The position numbers and the translations under genes are program-made. The notes under the pieces are model-generated. The model worked only from the letters and a program-made list of their open reading frames with translations, was not told the DNA's origin and did no database searches. Source: a virus. From it: 37,840 nucleotides of DNA. Positions 27,384 to 36,679 of this stretch are shown one piece after another. The DNA lies in the UHGV virus genome UHGV-0090851, one strand, 5' to 3'. Within the stretch, counting starts at the first letter, position 1, and every line of letters begins with the position of its first letter.

Positions 27384-27706
27384 ACTTTCAGGTCCCTCTC
27401 ATGTAACCAGTGGGTTGCACGCAGCCTTGCGTTTTCCTCACCGGCAAGCAGTGCGCGGATAATCCCGACCGCCTCGCTGTCGTCGTCCTTCACCGCGGTA
27501 TGAAGCGTTATCCCCCGGGCCACGCCACGCTTTATCGTGATGACGCCTTTTTTCTCCAGTGCGCGAAGATGCTCCACCGCTGCATTCACTGAACGGTATC
27601 CCAGCATGGTTGCCACCTCCTGATTGGTTGGCGGAAAGCCACGCTCTTTCTGATAAGAAATCAGCATATCCAGCACCTGCTGCTGGCATTGAGTTAATGT
27701 CGTCAT
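27380..27706 (-). CDS. LexA N-terminal DNA-binding-domain homolog lacking the S24 peptidase domain
   Basis: 108 aa; strong similarity to the LexA winged-HTH as recalled, including the recognition helix (SVNAAVEHLRALEKKGVI vs LexA SPNAAEEHLKALARKGVI); no catalytic domain. Confidence 0.7.
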   Translation of the reverse strand: MTTLTQCQQQVLDMLISYQKERGFPPTNQEVATMLGYRSVNAAVEHLRALEKKGVITIKRGVARGITLHTAVKDDDSEAVGIIRALLAGEENARLRATHWLHERDLKV

Positions 27707-28356
27707 GCCGCCATCTCCCTGACCAGTTTTTCCGCCTGCTGGCGAACCTGCGCCAGAAACGCCTCACCACATGCCTCAAGTTCATCGCGCCCGATGTAGC
27801 TGATTGCCGGTCCCTTCCAGGTCTTGTCAAAAACAGCAATAGCACCAGCGAAAAAAGCTCCTGTCGGTACCTGCTTCTCGTCTTTCGGGATAAACCAGAC
27901 AGGCAGTTCAAAACCAATACGCCCGCGAATAAAAGCAATATGATCTGCATCTTCCGGCCACCACACTTCGCTGGTGGCAGCTTTGATCAGGAAAACATAG
28001 CGCCCGCCCTTATCACGCATGGCACTGGCATGTTTCATGATGTAACGCATGCCGGTGATGTATTGCCCCTCATGCTGACTGGCGCGGCTGTATGGAGGAT
28101 TACCAAAGGCAGCACCTTTAAGCTCCGCAAGGCGTTCTGACCAGTCATGCGCCAGCGCGTTGTCTTCCGCCGTGTAATACGCGGCACATTTGGCGTTATC
28201 ACCGTCAGTGAACAGATCCAGAACAAACGGGCCAAACAGGGTGTTAATTCCCCAGAAAATGTTGTCCGGCGTGCGCCACTGATCACCCACTTCCTTCAGT
28301 TCATGGGCTGGTTTGTTCCGCAGTTCCACCAGCTCCTGGCAATATTTATTACTCAT
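27703..28356 (-). CDS. Phage Dam-like DNA N6-adenine methyltransferase
   Basis: Start taken at ATG 28354-28356 (TAATG overlap with the upstream stop); conserved WRTP near the N-terminus and FGNPPYS catalytic motif. Confidence 0.8.
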   Translation of the reverse strand: MSNKYCQELVELRNKPAHELKEVGDQWRTPDNIFWGINTLFGPFVLDLFTDGDNAKCAAYYTAEDNALAHDWSERLAELKGAAFGNPPYSRASQHEGQYITGMRYIMKHASAMRDKGGRYVFLIKAATSEVWWPEDADHIAFIRGRIGFELPVWFIPKDEKQVPTGAFFAGAIAVFDKTWKGPAISYIGRDELEACGEAFLAQVRQQAEKLVREMAA

Positions 28357-28844
28357 TAAGCCCCCACGTAATTCCCTGACAGATACCACTCATCACCCGA
28401 TACAGCGCGCTTGCTGCTTTTCCGTAAACACTGCTCACGACGCACCAGAAAATTGTTTCGTTCTGGCTGGGAGTGGCTTTCACGGAATGCCGCCATCCAC
28501 ACCGTTGCAGCACGACGGTATAGGCCCCTGGACTCCAGTTCTTCCGCCTGGCGGGTCAGGCACAAAATCACCCGGGGATCGTTAGTGCCGACATAGAAAT
28601 TGCGCACAGGTCTGGTTTCACGAACTGGTTGTGGTTCCGGCTCCTGCGCTCTCTCAGTCAGGCGTGGGAAATGTCTGCGTGTATCTCCTTCACAACGGTG
28701 AGCCACACGCCCACTCTGACGTAACTTGCTTGCTGACTGCAGAACGCGCTGCCGTGAGTAACCTGCAAAAGCATCCGCAATGTCTCCGGAAGTACACCCC
28801 GGATGGGCTTCAATGAATTTCTGAACTTCATTCAAAAGACTCAT
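28356..28844 (-). CDS. Hypothetical protein, possible winged-helix N-terminus, in the helicase-loader position
   Basis: About 162 aa from ATG 28842-28844; follows the replication initiator where lambda P or DnaC-like genes usually sit, with no resemblance to them. Confidence 0.4.
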   Translation of the reverse strand: MSLLNEVQKFIEAHPGCTSGDIADAFAGYSRQRVLQSASKLRQSGRVAHRCEGDTRRHFPRLTERAQEPEPQPVRETRPVRNFYVGTNDPRVILCLTRQAEELESRGLYRRAATVWMAAFRESHSQPERNNFLVRREQCLRKSSKRAVSGDEWYLSGNYVGA

Positions 28845-28846
28845 GA

Positions 28847-29839
28847 TCACCCCCTGAATCCTGCCGGGATCTGGCTGTAGTCCACGTTGTCGTAACTGGC
28901 TTTGAAGTACGGGTCTTCACGTTTTTCTGTGTGCGTGCTGACGGACGGCGATAAGCGCAGGGAAAGCTCATCCCATTTTTCCCGCAACTTCGACGGGCTG
29001 AGCACGTTACGGCACCAGAACGGATCGCGGCTGACGCGGCTGTACATCTCGCAGATTTGTTTGTGAGTACGACCATCCTGCACACACATCAGGCGAATTT
29101 CGTTTGCCCAGGCTGTCCAGTTCGGTTCTTTGGGACGAACCACCTCGCCGTCACATTCGGCGGCCTGCTCGTACAGGGCGATGATTTTTTTCCAGAGCCA
29201 CTGTGCGCAGGTCAAATCATCCTGCGTTCCCCACTGGCGCTTTTTAGGGCTGAATACAACCGCATCAGGATGGCGAGTTAAAAACTCCTGTTCAGCCGTT
29301 TGCGTGTCCGGTTGCGAAGCGTCCGGACGAGAAGAGGTTTTATTCTCTGTAGTAATCTCTGTTGTATTCTCTGTAAGATCATTGGGCCATTTTGACCCGA
29401 TGACAGCGTGTCGTTTTGAACCAATGGATCGTGTCATTTTGCGCCCATCCATCAGGTCACTTTGACCCGATGGAGAAGTGCATTTTGACCTGATCGATTC
29501 GTTCACTTTGACCTCTTCTAAAAGCTCACTTTCATAGTTGATCGTGTAGAAGTTGGTCATGTCACGCTTCGATTTATTGAGTTGCTCGCGACGCAAAACC
29601 CCAAGTGATTTCAGGCTTGCAAATGTGCGTTTCAGAGTGGACTCTGACCAGAACGGAAACTGCTCCAGCCACTGTTCTGTCGTGTTATAAACCCAGCGAA
29701 TTCCGCCATGCTCAGTGCCTGAATTCGTTTCATTCAGCCAGTAATGAAGCTGCTGCAACACAATTGCCTCATTCAGACCAATACGGCATGCAAGATCACG
29801 ATTTATCACAATGGGCTGGGATGTCATTAACAGGCTCAT
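28847..29839 (-). CDS. Replication initiation protein (lambda O-like replisome organiser) carrying the origin
   Basis: 330 aa; iteron array and AT-rich tract lie inside the coding sequence as in lambda O; ATG verified at 29837-29839. Confidence 0.7.
   Translation of the reverse strand: MSLLMTSQPIVINRDLACRIGLNEAIVLQQLHYWLNETNSGTEHGGIRWVYNTTEQWLEQFPFWSESTLKRTFASLKSLGVLRREQLNKSKRDMTNFYTINYESELLEEVKVNESIRSKCTSPSGQSDLMDGRKMTRSIGSKRHAVIGSKWPNDLTENTTEITTENKTSSRPDASQPDTQTAEQEFLTRHPDAVVFSPKKRQWGTQDDLTCAQWLWKKIIALYEQAAECDGEVVRPKEPNWTAWANEIRLMCVQDGRTHKQICEMYSRVSRDPFWCRNVLSPSKLREKWDELSLRLSPSVSTHTEKREDPYFKASYDNVDYSQIPAGFRG
29388..29516. repeat. Origin of replication: six 23-bp-spaced iterons
   Basis: CATTTTGACCCGATGA, CGTTTTGAACCAATGG, CATTTTGCGCCCATCC, CACTTTGACCCGATGG, CATTTTGACCTGATCG, CACTTTGACCTCTTCT, with an AT-rich tract containing short TTCTCTGT repeats at 29337-29385. 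Confidence 0.65.
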
Positions 29840-30008
29840 GACCGACCTCTATTTCCCTGAATTTACGACGAAACTGTTCGAGCGGACTGAAGCATTCATG
29901 TTCATAGCCTTCACGGAGGTAGATAACCCGTTGTGTTTCCGGCTCCCAACGAATGACTCTGACGGGCACTCCGTAGTGATCTTTGAACCAGCGGTTAACT
30001 TGTCGCAA
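29796..30008 (-). CDS. Alternative-frame ORF (TTG start), possible downstream part of a frameshifted gene
   Basis: 70 aa, no ATG; TTG at 30006-30008 preceded by SD GGAGA; protein-like composition. Confidence 0.25.
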
Positions 30009-30187
30009 AGGACTGTCTCCTTCTGCCGGTTGAAATCACCCACAGCCCACTCTGCAAAGCTGTGGGTTACAATTTCCCTGTCACCTGGTACATTCACTGC
30101 ATAGCAATACTCCACCTTCGCTTTTCCACCCGGTACAGGAAGCGCAATCAGTTGCGAGCGACGGTAGTGTGTTGTTAAACTGTTCAT
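29849..30187 (-). CDS. Hypothetical protein (ATGA-coupled to the upstream gene); C-terminal part doubtful
   Basis: 112 aa ORF with ATG at 30185-30187; the last ~50 aa are Ser-rich and low complexity while the overlapping alternative frame looks more protein-like. Confidence 0.35.
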
Positions 30188-30735
30188 GCGTTAGTTTCTC
30201 CACAGACACAAAACGCCACGGCGCCCGGAGCTGCACACTCGCGGGCGTCACTCTTTTCTGGAGCGCAAAAGATTTTGTAGACCAGTGCTGCATGCTCCTG
30301 CAGCTTCGAAATTGACATGTACAGCTCGTCGTTAATTGCTGCCTGCTCGTGTGGTTCCACCACCCCGTCTTCAATTGCTGAACGAATCTGTCTGGAATAA
30401 CTGCCGATCTGTTCAATGACCTCCAGCAGGCGCTGGTTGATATCGGCGTTCTCTACTTCCTCAATTTCAGGAAGTGATACAAACACCCCACCAGCAGACT
30501 GTGCGACAGCATCCGCAATGTGGTGATTGCCAGCAGCACGCTGTAAAACCATTGCCCATCCCAACGGGAAAATCTGATCGCCATCTGCACGAAGGCGGTT
30601 GAATAAAGCGTTCTCTGTTACATCCAGCCAGTCAGCAGCTTCAGCGTAACCCCCTGGCAATGCCGCGATAGTTTTTCTGACAGCTTTCACGTACCACTCA
30701 GGTTGTTTTTCCACTTTCCAATGATGCTTACCCAC
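30184..30735 (-). CDS. YdaT-like protein (CII-position early regulator)
   Basis: 183 aa immediately downstream of the Cro-like gene; GTG start with strong SD AGGAGG; family assignment from memory of Rac-type immunity regions. Confidence 0.5.
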
Positions 30736-30988
30736 GGCTTACCTCCTGTTCCTGTGGTTTAAACCCATTCTGGTTTTGGCTAGATTGAAAACGTGCCGGA
30801 TAAAGAATCTGCATTTCGCTGATTTCACCCTTAAAAAAATTGGCCAGACGTTCTGCAAGATCGATAGATGGAATTTGTTCCAGTCTTTCAATACGACTCA
30901 GCGTCGCTGGATTGACCTGAACGCCCGCAGCAACATGCTGCAAAGTAAATCCGTGCGCCTTACGCACATTCCGTAATGGTGATTGCAT
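30728..30988 (-). CDS. Cro-like HTH regulator (YdaS-like)
   Basis: 86 aa; HTH (FTLQHVAAGVQVNPATLSRIERLEQIPS); divergent from the cI-type repressor; ATG with SD GGAGG. Confidence 0.7.
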   Translation of the reverse strand: MQSPLRNVRKAHGFTLQHVAAGVQVNPATLSRIERLEQIPSIDLAERLANFFKGEISEMQILYPARFQSSQNQNGFKPQEQEVSRG

Positions 30989-31085
30989 ATAACCTCCACA
31001 TATTGCGTGATGAGCATATTATTTCACGCAAATATTTTGCGCAAGTTGATTTGCTTAACGCGCAATAAAGAAATGTAATAAACGC
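30989..31085. promoter_or_regulatory. Immunity switch region: divergent pR / pRM candidates and operators
   Basis: Palindrome TTGCGTGA-N13-TCACGCAA (31003-31031), TTGCGCAA (31037-31044), TTGC-N7-GCAA (31051-31065). Minus-strand promoter TTGCGC-17-TAATAT for cro; plus-strand TTGCTT-17-TGTAAT ending about 6 nt before the cI ATG. Confidence 0.5.
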
Positions 31086-31778
31086 ATGAACATAGGAAAT
31101 CGAGTCAGACAACTTCGCCAGGCGAAGAACATGAAAATCGCCGATCTCGCTGAAGCAATAGGAGTGGATGCGGCGAATATCTCGCGCCTCGAAACAGGTA
31201 AGCAGAAACAATTCACTGAACAAGCCCTGAGTAATATTGCCAGGAGCTTAGGTGTTGATATTGCTGATCTCTTTACCTCAGACCTCAAAAGTAATACTGT
31301 ATGTAAAAACAGTATTAGTGAGGATGTTGCGCAGGTGAAGGATGTATTCCGTATTGAAATGCTGGATGTCAGTGCCAGTGCGGGAAATGGCCTTATCCAG
31401 GGCGGTGATGTCATTGATGTGATTCATGCCATTGAATACAGAACTGATAATGCTGTATCGATGTTTGGTGGACGACCAGCAAATCACATTAAAGTTATCA
31501 ACGTTCGTGGGGACAGTATGTGTCCAACCATTGAGCCAGGAGATCTCATCTTCGTTGATATCAGTATCAATCAGTTTGATGGGGATGGTATATATGTATT
31601 TGGTTTTGATGATAAAATTTACGTCAAACGACTGCAAATGATACCTGATAAACTGCTGGTAATTTCTGATAATCAGATTTACCGCGAATGGGGAATTACC
31701 AGCGAAAACGAACACCGGTTTATGGTCTTTGGAAAGGTCTTAATCAGTCAGTCACAAACCCTTAAGCGACACAATTAA
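31086..31778 (+). CDS. CI-type phage repressor (HTH plus S24 LexA-like peptidase domain)
   Basis: 230 aa; N-terminal HTH (VRQLRQAKNMKIADLAEAIGVDAANISRLETG) and C-terminal autocleavage domain (VRGDSMCPTIEPGDLIFVD...VKRL). Confidence 0.9.
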   Translation: MNIGNRVRQLRQAKNMKIADLAEAIGVDAANISRLETGKQKQFTEQALSNIARSLGVDIADLFTSDLKSNTVCKNSISEDVAQVKDVFRIEMLDVSASAGNGLIQGGDVIDVIHAIEYRTDNAVSMFGGRPANHIKVINVRGDSMCPTIEPGDLIFVDISINQFDGDGIYVFGFDDKIYVKRLQMIPDKLLVISDNQIYREWGITSENEHRFMVFGKVLISQSQTLKRHN

Positions 31779-31872: not shown

Positions 31873-32343
31873 TTTCATTTTATCTTTCTTTCCAGACCAA
31901 CAAACAAGGTCCTGACAAAATTTGGTTGTAACACGGCGTATGGCACATGCGTCGTTAGCGGTCTGGGGACGTTAAAGGGGACAATCCACTCCTTGCTCGG
32001 GCAAACAAACCAGGTAGCCGGAATGTGCAAGTCAATGATGATGCTGATAAGACGCCTAACCAGCGCGGCGATCCGGTTTGACGCCTGGGAAGAGACCAGG
32101 GTGCAACGATGAGGGCATTTATGGAACCGCGACAAAGTGTGGTGCCGTAACTGGCTAAGTGCTCTCAGCGTTGTGGTAATCCGCGAAATGGCGCGGCGGT
32201 AAGTATGGCGGGGTTACTCTTTCCCCGTTGAGGACACCGGATTGTCAGGTTGACCATACGCCTGAGTGACAACCCCACCACAACAGCCACTGCTTTGGCG
32301 GTGCCAGTTTGTACACTTGCTTCCGGCTGGTACCGCTCTTTTT

Positions 32344-32432
32344 ACAAAACAGAGAAGAGCATCACCGGACGACGGGCTCATAACCCAATCCATCCGGGCG
32401 GCTGCCACCGCAGGTGTTCTTCTCTGTTTTGT
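32344..32432 (+). repeat. Perfect 15-bp inverted repeat with 59-nt spacer in the early-left leader
   Basis: ACAAAACAGAGAAGA (32344-32358) and TCTTCTCTGTTTTGT (32418-32432); sits about 50 nt upstream of the first early-left gene. Confidence 0.4.
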
Positions 32433-32480
32433 GGAGAAACCAACCGACCTTGCAGGGTCGATATGATGAGGAACAGCAAA

Positions 32481-32843
32481 ATGGCTAGCGAACGCAGTAC
32501 TGATGTGCAGGCATTTATCGGGGAGCTGGACGGCGGCGTATTTGAAACCAAAATCGGCGCAGTTCTCAGTGAAGTCGCTTCCGGTGTGATGAACACGAAA
32601 ACCAAAGGGAAGGTCTCACTCAACCTGGAAATCGAACCATTTGATGAGAACCGTGTGAAAATCAAACACAAACTCTCATATATTCGCCCGACTAACCGCG
32701 GGAAAATTTCCGAAGAAGACACCACCGAAACGCCGATGTATGTCAATCGCGGTGGTCGCCTGACTATTCTGCAGGAAGACCAGGGACAATTACTGACTCT
32801 TGCCGGTGAACCTGACGGAAAACTCCGCGCAGCAGGTCATTAA
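32481..32843 (+). CDS. Hypothetical early-left protein
   Basis: About 121 aa from ATG 32481; the longer table ORF from 32250 starts at TTG and its N-terminal region does not look protein-like. Confidence 0.45.
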   Translation: MASERSTDVQAFIGELDGGVFETKIGAVLSEVASGVMNTKTKGKVSLNLEIEPFDENRVKIKHKLSYIRPTNRGKISEEDTTETPMYVNRGGRLTILQEDQGQLLTLAGEPDGKLRAAGH

Positions 32844-32908
32844 TATCGTTTTTAATAAACTGATTATTTATCTCATCACTGAATATTTTTATATAGTGAG
32901 GACTTATT

Positions 32909-33733
32909 ATGTCTCAGAACTTAGACGCAACCGCAATTAATCAAATCCATGCCCTTATTTCTGCTCAGGGTGTTAATGAAATTATCAGTAAGATTGGTGC
33001 CGATGCTGTGGCATTGCCTGAGAATTTCCGCATTCATGATCTGGAAAAATTTAATTTAAATCGCTTCCGTTTCCGTGGTGCGCTTTCCACTGCCAGCATC
33101 GATGACTTTACCCGTTATTCTAAAGATCTTGCAGATGAAGGCACCAGCTGCTTTATCGATGCTGATAATATGCGTGCCGTCAGTGTACTTAACCTGGGTA
33201 CTATTGATGAACCAGGTCACGCAGATAACACCGCCACTCTCAAACTGAAAAAGACAGCACCGTTCTCTGCCCTGTTGTCTGTTAACGGCGAGCGTAACTC
33301 CCAGAAGTCACTGGCAGAATGGATTGAAGACTGGGCCGACTACCTTGTGGGCTTTGATGCCAATGGTGACGCTATTCAGGCAACAAAAGCGGCTGCGGCA
33401 GTCCGTAAAATCACGATTGAAGCAAACCAGACCGCTGATTTTGAAGATAATGACTTCAGCGGCAAACGCTCCCTGATGGAGTCTGTCGAAGCGAAGACAA
33501 AAGACATTATGCCAGTGGCATTTGAATTTAAATGCGTTCCGTTTGAAGGTCTGAAAGAACGTCCGTTTAAATTACGCCTCAGCATTATCACTGGCGATCG
33601 TCCTGTACTGGTTCTGCGCATTATTCAGCTGGAAGCGATGCAGGAAGAAATGGCTAACGAATTTCGTGATCTGCTTGTTGAGAAATTCAAGGACAGCAAA
33701 GTAGAAACCTTTATTGGTACTTTCACCGCCTGA
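32909..33733 (+). CDS. YfdQ-like protein (DUF2303)
   Basis: 274 aa, ATG with SD; resembles the CPS-53/KpLE1 prophage YfdQ family as recalled. Confidence 0.6.
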
Positions 33734-35935: not shown

Positions 35936-36679
35936 ATGAATACTCTTACCAAAGAATGGTTACAGAACACGATTACCAGCATTGAGTCAGCACGGGATGA
36001 AATACCGTTCGGACTCGATGAAGATCAAAACAACATGCTTACCGCATTAAAAATTGCACTGGCATCACTGGCATCACTGGCAGCAGTATCGGATGAACGA
36101 GCAGCCTATGAATTATTTATGGAGAAGCGTTTCGGGGAATCTGTAGATCGCCGTAGGGCAAAAAATGGCGATAGAGAATACATGGCATGGGATATGGCGC
36201 TTGGCTGGATTATCTGGTGTCACCGCGCCGCCATGCTTCAGGGTAGCCAACCTGTAAGCCAAACTTACAACTTGCCAGAATTAATCGAAGGCATGGAAGT
36301 TTCCATTGATGTAAGCACTTGTGATGCTGATTTAGGTAATCGCTATTTCGGCACCGTCACCGAGGCGTTAGAACTTGATACAGCCAAGAATGGTTACATC
36401 CTCCTGGTTCAGGACGCAGAGCCAAACTTCGATGTAAATGGCAACTCTCCGGTAACTCCGGATAGTTGGATAAGCTGTAGTGATCAAATGCCTGAAAAGG
36501 GCCAGAACGTGCTTATTTCGGTGAATTTCGATAGCTCTCTGGTTGAACCGCTAATATGCTCCGCACGCTATACCGGAAGCACCTTTCGGCGCGGAGATGC
36601 AACGATTAAGCCGGGTAATGGTATTGAGCAAGCAACTCACTGGATGCCGCTACCGGAACCGCCGCAGGAGGTGAAGTGA
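35936..36679 (+). CDS. DUF551-containing protein with Ea22-like N-terminus
   Basis: 247 aa; C-terminal segment (WISCSDQMPEKGQNVLI...THWMPLPEPP) resembles DUF551. Confidence 0.55.
   Translation: MNTLTKEWLQNTITSIESARDEIPFGLDEDQNNMLTALKIALASLASLAAVSDERAAYELFMEKRFGESVDRRRAKNGDREYMAWDMALGWIIWCHRAAMLQGSQPVSQTYNLPELIEGMEVSIDVSTCDADLGNRYFGTVTEALELDTAKNGYILLVQDAEPNFDVNGNSPVTPDSWISCSDQMPEKGQNVLISVNFDSSLVEPLICSARYTGSTFRRGDATIKPGNGIEQATHWMPLPEPPQEVK

Follow-up and report, generated by a model that had tools for sequence, protein, structure and literature searches.

Replication origins in which iterons are embedded in the gene for their own initiator are textbook knowledge. In λ and the Stx phages four or six iterons and an AT-rich tract lie in the central part of the O gene, and the tract is required for unwinding but not for binding by O (PMC7466680). 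A further proven initiator-gene origin is oriL of phage SPP1, which lies inside gene 38 (PMC6316719). In plasmid RK2 all the 13-mers of the unwinding element are required, and one melted strand is bound by the initiator (PMC4980987). Here we describe a set of direct repeats in the virus genome UHGV-0090851, which was analysed as one stretch of 37,840 nucleotides (the window). The repeats lie within an O-like replication initiator gene on the minus strand. Our sequence data make it highly probable that they form a vegetative (theta-type) replication origin inside the phage's own initiator gene, organised like oriλ.

The initiator of 330 amino acids matched PHROG 391, "replication initiation O-like", from end to end (E 1e-101), and the counterpart gene of mEp460_4F5 is 98% identical to it. 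We compared the gene directly with the O region of λ, where four 18-bp iterons, spaced at 20, 24 and 23 bp, occupy nt 349-433 of O and are followed by an A-rich region. Both genes have the same order of DNA-binding domain, iterons, easily melted tract and C-terminal domain. In oriλ and in the six-iteron variants of the Stx phages 933W and P27 the origin is, as in the window, inside the initiator gene, with dyad-symmetric iterons at 20-24 bp. In oriλ, again as in the window, the tract that melts easily is A-rich and comes immediately downstream of the iterons with respect to rightward early transcription. The iterons themselves are different, since those of oriλ are 18-bp units of the form TCCCTC...GAGGGA while those of the window are 13-bp units of the form GGTCA-N3-TGACC, seven of them at an almost rigid 23 bp. 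Other differences from λ are that the tract that would be melted is built of defined 12-mer repeats and that the window lacks a P gene.

The initial annotation had described six direct repeats with a strict 23-bp period and the core CAYTTTGACC. We found four copies of the exact core in the window, all within 126 bp (29388-29513). By comparison, dinucleotide-preserving shuffles of the window (n = 100) gave an expected count of 0.22, and none of the 100 shuffles reached four. Two further in-register units carry two mismatches each (29412, 29435). The repeats and their core are thus real, but what repeats is in fact an imperfect palindrome of 13 bp, which reads GGTCAAARTGACC on the coding strand and GKTCAYTTTGACC on the plus strand, and there are seven units, six clear and one degenerate (29524-29536). 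The start-to-start spacings are 24, 23, 23, 23, 23 and 23 bp, so that the 23-bp period holds at five of the six spacings and one is of 24 bp. Together the iterons take up nt 304-455 of the 993-nt gene, between the regions coding for the predicted winged-helix domain and the C-terminal domain. No second iteron cluster was found in the window, and none of the four exact cores falls outside the initiator gene. The positions of the individual units are given in Table 1.

Repeats within a gene could also be a by-product of coding, with the segment serving as a low-complexity peptide linker between domains and having no function as DNA. The segment does encode a polar linker containing (S/V)I(R/G)SK and TENTTEITTEN, and the 12-bp repeat that follows the iterons has a length divisible by three and stays in frame in most relatives. 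However, 23 is not a multiple of three and therefore successive iterons are read in different frames, all three of which are used. In coding order the cores of the seven units translate to YESEL, EVKVN, RSKCT, GQSDL, GRKMT, GSKRH and GSKWP. The IGSK-type peptide repeats noted in the initial annotation come from three of the seven units, which share a frame and give (S/V)I(R/G)SK; the remaining four (EVKVN, GQSDL, GRKMT and YESEL) are not of this type. A similar peptide is therefore obtained from fewer than half of the units.

We then examined conservation by codon position in 18 homologous genes with 62-80% identity to the initiator gene, taken from phages and prophages of E. coli, Citrobacter, Klebsiella, Enterobacter, Xenorhabdus, Providencia and Pantoea and scored on the initiator reading frame and the repeat register. 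In the N-terminal domain, conservation at codon positions 1, 2 and 3 was 0.82, 0.90 and 0.60, the usual signature of protein-level selection. This signature is gone in the iteron cores (0.81, 0.86 and 0.81) and in the 12-mer tract (0.98, 0.85 and 0.96), where third positions are conserved like first and second ones. The excess at third positions was significant by the Mann-Whitney test for both the cores (p = 4e-7) and the tract (p = 1e-8). The register of the units is kept across the relatives even where single bases change, so comparison with related phages bears out both the repeat arrangement and its constraint at the DNA level in these 18 genes. Half-sites differ between relatives while remaining palindromic, tract spacings of 10 or 11 bp shift the frame in several relatives, and the A+T-rich motif is kept in GC-rich hosts, all of which speaks against a mere peptide linker. 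Because all three frames are used, third positions are conserved and the register is kept, our data indicate that the iterons are conserved as DNA and are not a by-product of coding. The possibility, raised along with the initial annotation, that the repeats are purely coding-driven is countered by the three frames and the third-position conservation. For the iterons this explanation is largely refuted, and we regard a linker without any DNA function as barely credible.

We next consider the protein that would bind these sites. An AlphaFold2 model of residues 1-110 (predicted local distance difference test score, pLDDT, 87.8) has the fold of a winged helix-turn-helix with a β-hairpin wing and a recognition helix at residues 66-79. 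The closest PDB folds found by Foldseek were winged-helix regulators of the ArsR/MarR type. Matches to the RepA_N initiator folds 4pql, 4pt7 and 5kbj were weak (E about 0.1, template modelling (TM) score 0.4-0.5) and ranked below those to generic winged helix-turn-helix regulators. Pfam, NCBIfam and PDB-sequence searches with the whole protein and with its halves gave no match for the N-terminal domain, and the whole 330-residue protein had zero matches in the same three collections. Specifically, there was no Pfam match to Phage_rep_O (PF04492), even at E values up to 5, and none to RepA_N (PF06970), and hhalign found no relation between this domain and the N-terminal domain of λ O (profile probability 0.3%). 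The RepA_N plasmids of Gram-positive bacteria, with the RepA proteins of pSK41 and pTZ2162, nevertheless resemble the window in having the origin inside repA and the iterons in the middle of the gene. The winged-helix N-terminal domain of RepA_N proteins reportedly binds the iterons in mid-repA, and the helical C-terminal domain is said to recruit host factors (Schumacher et al. 2014; Weaver et al. 2009).

A degenerate-pattern scan, with one genome taken per species, yielded 248 relatives of the N-terminal domain. The 80 loci that we examined span enterobacteria, Pseudomonas, Comamonas, Acinetobacter, Staphylococcus, bacilli, lactobacilli, Tissierellia and several metagenome-assembled genomes (MAGs). 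Most loci with a clear repeat showed a periodicity of 22-24 bp starting about 300 nt into the gene, and in nearly all proteobacterial loci the period was 23 bp. The iterons of the relatives follow the pattern N3-CA-N3-TG-N3, in which the outer triplets vary by clade and stay palindromic. Half-sites of different clades are, for example, GGTCA/TGACC, GGGCA/TGCCC, GTGCA/TGCAC, GGACA/TGTCC and GATCA/TGATC. Positions 3 and 11 were complementary in 159 of 246 iterons from 61 loci, compared with about 84 expected from the marginal base frequencies. This complementary change is the pattern expected of a dimer that reads two half-sites, and it suggests such a mode of binding here.

We found that one residue of the N-terminal domain follows the variable base of the half-site. 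When columns of the domain were scored for mutual information with half-site base 3 in about 60 relatives, residue 67 reached 1.43 of a possible 1.52 bits, while the runner-up column reached 0.86 bits. Residue 67 (codon 29639-29641) stands at the start of the predicted recognition helix, in the motif W-S-x-X-T-[ILV]-K-R. The pairs of residue and base are Ser with T (25 loci), Asp with G (19), Lys with A (5), and Arg, His or Asn with C. Asp/G pairs turn up repeatedly, in Pantoea, Citrobacter, Pseudomonas, Comamonas, Acinetobacter and Paenalcaligenes, and Ser/T pairs extend from E. coli to Staphylococcus. Residue 67 resembles a one-residue specificity code. Since the half-sites change symmetrically and residue 67 covaries with base 3, there is strong indirect evidence that the initiator binds the repeats in its own gene, which would make them iterons in the proper sense.

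Directly after the iterons in gene orientation, and before them on the plus strand, we found a tract of three tandem 12-mers, TACAGAGAWTAC on the coding strand, at nt 460-502 of the gene. The initial annotation had described an AT-rich tract with short repeats after the iterons, and this part of the description is correct. The coding strand of the tract is A-rich, starts at a GATC and translates to TENTTEITTEN. At 68-70% A+T it is the local maximum within the gene. In a nearest-neighbour stability scan, no 40-bp duplex in the gene, or anywhere in 27500-31000, was less stable than the one that starts at 29339. Its dG of -45.8 is 3 standard deviations (sd) from the gene mean (-57.2, sd 3.7) and ranks it in the top 0.7% of the least stable windows of the whole sequence. 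The 12-mer pattern alone, with up to two mismatches, was found six times in the window against 2.85 expected, which is not significant. The significance of the 12-mers therefore comes from their tandem arrangement and from the comparative data described below, not from enrichment across the window.

The closest analogy for this putative unwinding element is with the repeated 13-mers of oriC and RK2 oriV. In these origins, as in the window, the unwinding element consists of three or four short repeats of about one helical turn each, which in RK2 oriV also follow the iterons. The element described here differs from both in its motif, in the position of the repeats inside a coding sequence and in having no DnaA boxes nearby.

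The GATC sites of the region are at 29377, 29427, 29492 and 29540. These four sites in the 231-bp origin segment are the highest density in the window, and one of them stands exactly at the boundary of iterons and 12-mers, where it is kept in many relatives as GATCTTACAGAG. The enrichment is too weak as evidence to build on. As a further observation on base composition, the A+T-richest 40-mers of the window (82%) lie at about 32837-32895, in the 3' end of the open reading frame (ORF) 32250-32843 and the gap before 32909-33733.

The C-terminal domain of the initiator is clearly homologous to the C-terminal half of λ O, as judged by profile and sequence comparison. By hhalign it aligned with residues 172-273 of λ O over 102 columns (probability 99.7%, E 2.3e-26, 39% identity), and tblastn gave 38% identity (E 1.8e-22). 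This homology and the match to PHROG 391 agree with the earlier placement of the repeats inside an O-like coding sequence. SPP1 encodes its own loader, gp39, and its own helicase, gp40; the window phage encodes neither.

Taken together, these data suggest the following route to initiation. Rightward early transcription would lead to synthesis of the initiator, and dimers of its N-terminal winged helix would bind the six or seven 13-bp iterons (GGTCA-N3-TGACC). The 23-bp phasing may then build a multi-dimer nucleoprotein complex comparable to the O-some of λ. Strain from this complex, probably aided by transcription through the site, would melt the adjacent three TACAGAGAWTAC 12-mers, and the λ O-like C-terminal domain would bring in the host replicative helicase. 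The phage encodes no loader of the λ P type, and we presume that recruitment therefore relies on host DnaB-DnaC or on some other route of the host.

Sites bound by the initiator need not be an origin. They could act in autoregulation, copy control or titration exclusion while replication starts elsewhere, and plasmid iterons are known to serve copy control as well (PMC4980987). However, the sites are in the middle of the gene and not at a promoter, and the least stable duplex of the region comes directly after them. The arrangement is also collinear with the proven oriλ, and the module of array and tract is kept among relatives (the tract in 58 of 78 loci). Finally, the window has no second iteron cluster. 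We therefore consider a purely regulatory role improbable. In a scan of 28700-31200 for promoters and terminators, scores were not above shuffled expectation and nothing was found at the origin.

Several points weigh against the origin as we read it. We found no DnaA box and no IHF consensus within 28700-30100. At 68-70% A+T the tract is surpassed by AT-richer stretches elsewhere in the window. Most relatives keep its 12-bp repeat in frame (111 of 119 spacings), so that a role as peptide linker is not fully separable from a role as DNA. The covariation statistics, both for the half-sites and for residue 67, are uncorrected for shared ancestry. Searches by tblastn with λ P and with a helicase-like protein of Stx phages found nothing in the window, which contains no gene for λ P, a DnaC-like protein or a helicase, so that neither a loader nor a P homologue is present for the last step of the mechanism. 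In the full-text literature that we searched we found no account of iterons or 12-mers of this type, and an earlier description may exist. With these points included, an iteron origin embedded in the initiator gene, as the initial annotation had proposed, is supported by all of the sequence-based tests and is the reading that we favour.

The initiator gene is a mosaic, and this bears on the function of the tract. Megablast alignments end at query positions 497-503, which is about 29343-29349 in the window, and the junction was placed at 29345-29355. From this junction to the 3' end of the gene, identity to SfII, SfIV, Kati and other phages is 97-98%. In these phages the 5' half is unrelated and encodes an HTH_36-type N-terminal domain with its own TCTGACCCGTCAAAA-like repeats. 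Because the 5' halves differ while the 3' halves match, the N-terminal domain and the iterons are exchanged as one unit, with the junction in the 12-mer tract. Similarly, the tract at 29341-29380 is 97.5% identical to a segment in "replication protein O" genes of Stx phages, genes that differ from that of the window in N-terminal domain and in iterons.

We found that the tract is not confined to these phages. At least two chained CAGAGA-type motifs come right after the iterons in 58 of the 78 related loci analysed, with spacings of 12 bp (111 times), 11 bp (6 times) and 10 bp (twice). The loci that bear the tract include Proteobacteria, Staphylococcus, Limosilactobacillus (Lactobacillaceae), Tissierellia and GC-rich hosts. 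A scan of viral contigs for two adjacent 12-mers gave at least 71 complete ORFs, all with an internal tract. Among the matches listed, at least four N-terminal classes are combined with at least four C-terminal classes, the latter including the λ O-like class, the initiator's own type, Phg_2220_C and the Stx1 type. In 70 of the 71 ORFs listed, whatever the N-terminal class, the best period over the 200 bp that precede the tract was 23 bp, and control segments of the same ORFs showed no 23-bp preference. Judged from these sequences, the tract acts like a shared cassette placed behind many different sets of iterons. The recurrence of 23-bp iteron phasing followed by the same 12-mer cassette, in several unrelated initiator families and in more than one phylum, is the less expected result of the comparison. 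The literature that we searched contained no description of the 12-mer cassette.

The same data raise the question of whether the TACAGAGAWTAC tract is mainly a recombination joint rather than a specific element for unwinding or helicase loading, which would be compatible with the repeats being an origin. The mosaic junction with the SfII-type genes falls inside the tract, the tract links at least four N-terminal to at least four C-terminal classes, and it is near-identical between otherwise unrelated initiator genes of E. coli phages. However, the tract is also conserved in Staphylococcus, Limosilactobacillus, Tissierellia and an Armatimonadales MAG alongside diverged flanks, which recent recombination cannot account for. 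In addition, the tract always comes straight after the iterons and coincides with the stability minimum, and repeated 13-mers are proven to act in unwinding at oriC and RK2 (PMC4980987). We thus think it rather doubtful that the tract is chiefly a joint.

Since the 23-bp period was found in 70 of the 71 listed ORFs and the cassette is spread over distant groups, a broader reading can be put forward, although only tentatively. It would see here a portable origin grammar, older and wider than the lambdoid phages, in which unrelated winged-helix domains with their cognate palindromic iterons at 23 bp feed one CAGAGA-type cassette of 10- to 12-bp repeats. The cassette would be a sequence-specific element for unwinding or helicase loading. 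It would be recognised not by the variable initiator domains but by a conserved host factor, or in single-stranded form, and it would also be the joint for domain shuffling. A single residue of the recognition helix, Ser, Asp, Lys or Arg for T, G, A or C, would largely determine iteron specificity.

Table 1. Features of the embedded origin, its initiator gene and neighbouring genes; positions are those of the window (aa, amino acids)
Feature	Position	Strand	Basis or remark
Replication initiator gene, O-like, 330 aa (993 nt)	28847..29839	-	ORF list and PHROG 391
N-terminal winged-helix DNA-binding domain (predicted), aa 1-105	29525..29839	-	AlphaFold2
Iteron 1 (coding order), degenerate, TATGAAAGTGAGC	29524..29536	-	23-bp register; weak in relatives too
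Iteron 2, GGTCAAAGTGAAC	29501..29513	-	
Iteron 3, GGTCAAAATGCAC	29478..29490	-	
Iteron 4, GGTCAAAGTGACC	29455..29467	-	perfect 5-3-5 palindrome GGTCA-N3-TGACC
Iteron 5, diverged, GCGCAAAATGACA	29432..29444	-	
Iteron 6, diverged, GTTCAAAACGACA	29409..29421	-	
Iteron 7, GGTCAAAATGGCC	29385..29397	-	adjoins 12-mer tract; 24 bp from iteron 6
Putative DNA-unwinding element, three 12-bp repeats	29337..29380	-	repeats, A+T, stability
12-mers TACAGAGAWTAC (coding strand)	29341-29352, 29353-29364, 29365-29376	-	
C-terminal domain, λ O homologue (P-binding half), aa ~183-294	28958..29293	-	hhalign, tblastn
112-aa ORF (phrog_1170)	29849-30187	-	between cII-like gene and initiator
PerC-family regulator gene	28356-28850	-	start overlaps initiator stop codon
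Phage Dam methylase gene	27703-28389	-	two genes downstream of initiator

The window belongs to an SfV/SfII/mEp460-like lambdoid temperate phage or prophage of E. coli/Shigella, and vB_EcoM-720R4, mEp460 and SfV are 96-98% identical to its right half over long stretches. The initiator gene is part of the early-right operon, downstream of cro-like and cII-like genes and the 112-aa ORF. A cI-like repressor gene lies on the opposite strand, also upstream of the initiator gene. The 112-aa ORF is present in SfII and mEp460_4F5 and absent from phage HannyBb. Two entries of the ORF list, 29130-29465 on the plus strand and 29278-29424 on the minus strand, overlap the initiator gene and were considered as possible genes. 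Short tandem repeats of 9 bp were also seen outside the origin, namely a perfect one of 2.9 copies (CACTGGCAT) at 36057-36082 in the early-left region and one of 3.3 copies inside the cI-like gene at 31406-31435.

To place the origin among bacterial genomes, we counted its 231-bp segment in complete E. coli genomes and found it in 1838 of 5426, about a third. By identity, 226 records were at 95% or more and 1615 at 80-90%. The initiator is annotated in such genomes as "hypothetical protein" (PGAP, E. coli RefSeq). RAST-style records mislabel it "Primosomal protein I", and labels elsewhere are "transcriptional regulator" and "replication initiation O-like protein". By its sequence features, the locus appears to be an uncharacterised but very common member of the well-known λ-type embedded origins. 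Its DNA-binding domain is not of the λ type, its C-terminal domain is λ O-like, and a P gene is absent.

Recognising this origin makes it possible to annotate one of the commonest replication modules of enterobacterial prophages. The family also offers an unusually clean readout of the specificity between initiator and iterons from sequence alone, one residue for one base, and a conserved 12-mer cassette that unrelated initiators share. Both could be of help in predicting which co-resident prophages exclude one another or are incompatible in replication, and in designing origin-based phage-resistance or plasmid tools. They also bear on the question of how a λ O-like C-terminal domain recruits the helicase in a phage without a P protein. 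The shared grammar of 23-bp iterons and CAGAGA 12-mers across initiator families, and the apparent one-residue code, are worth following.

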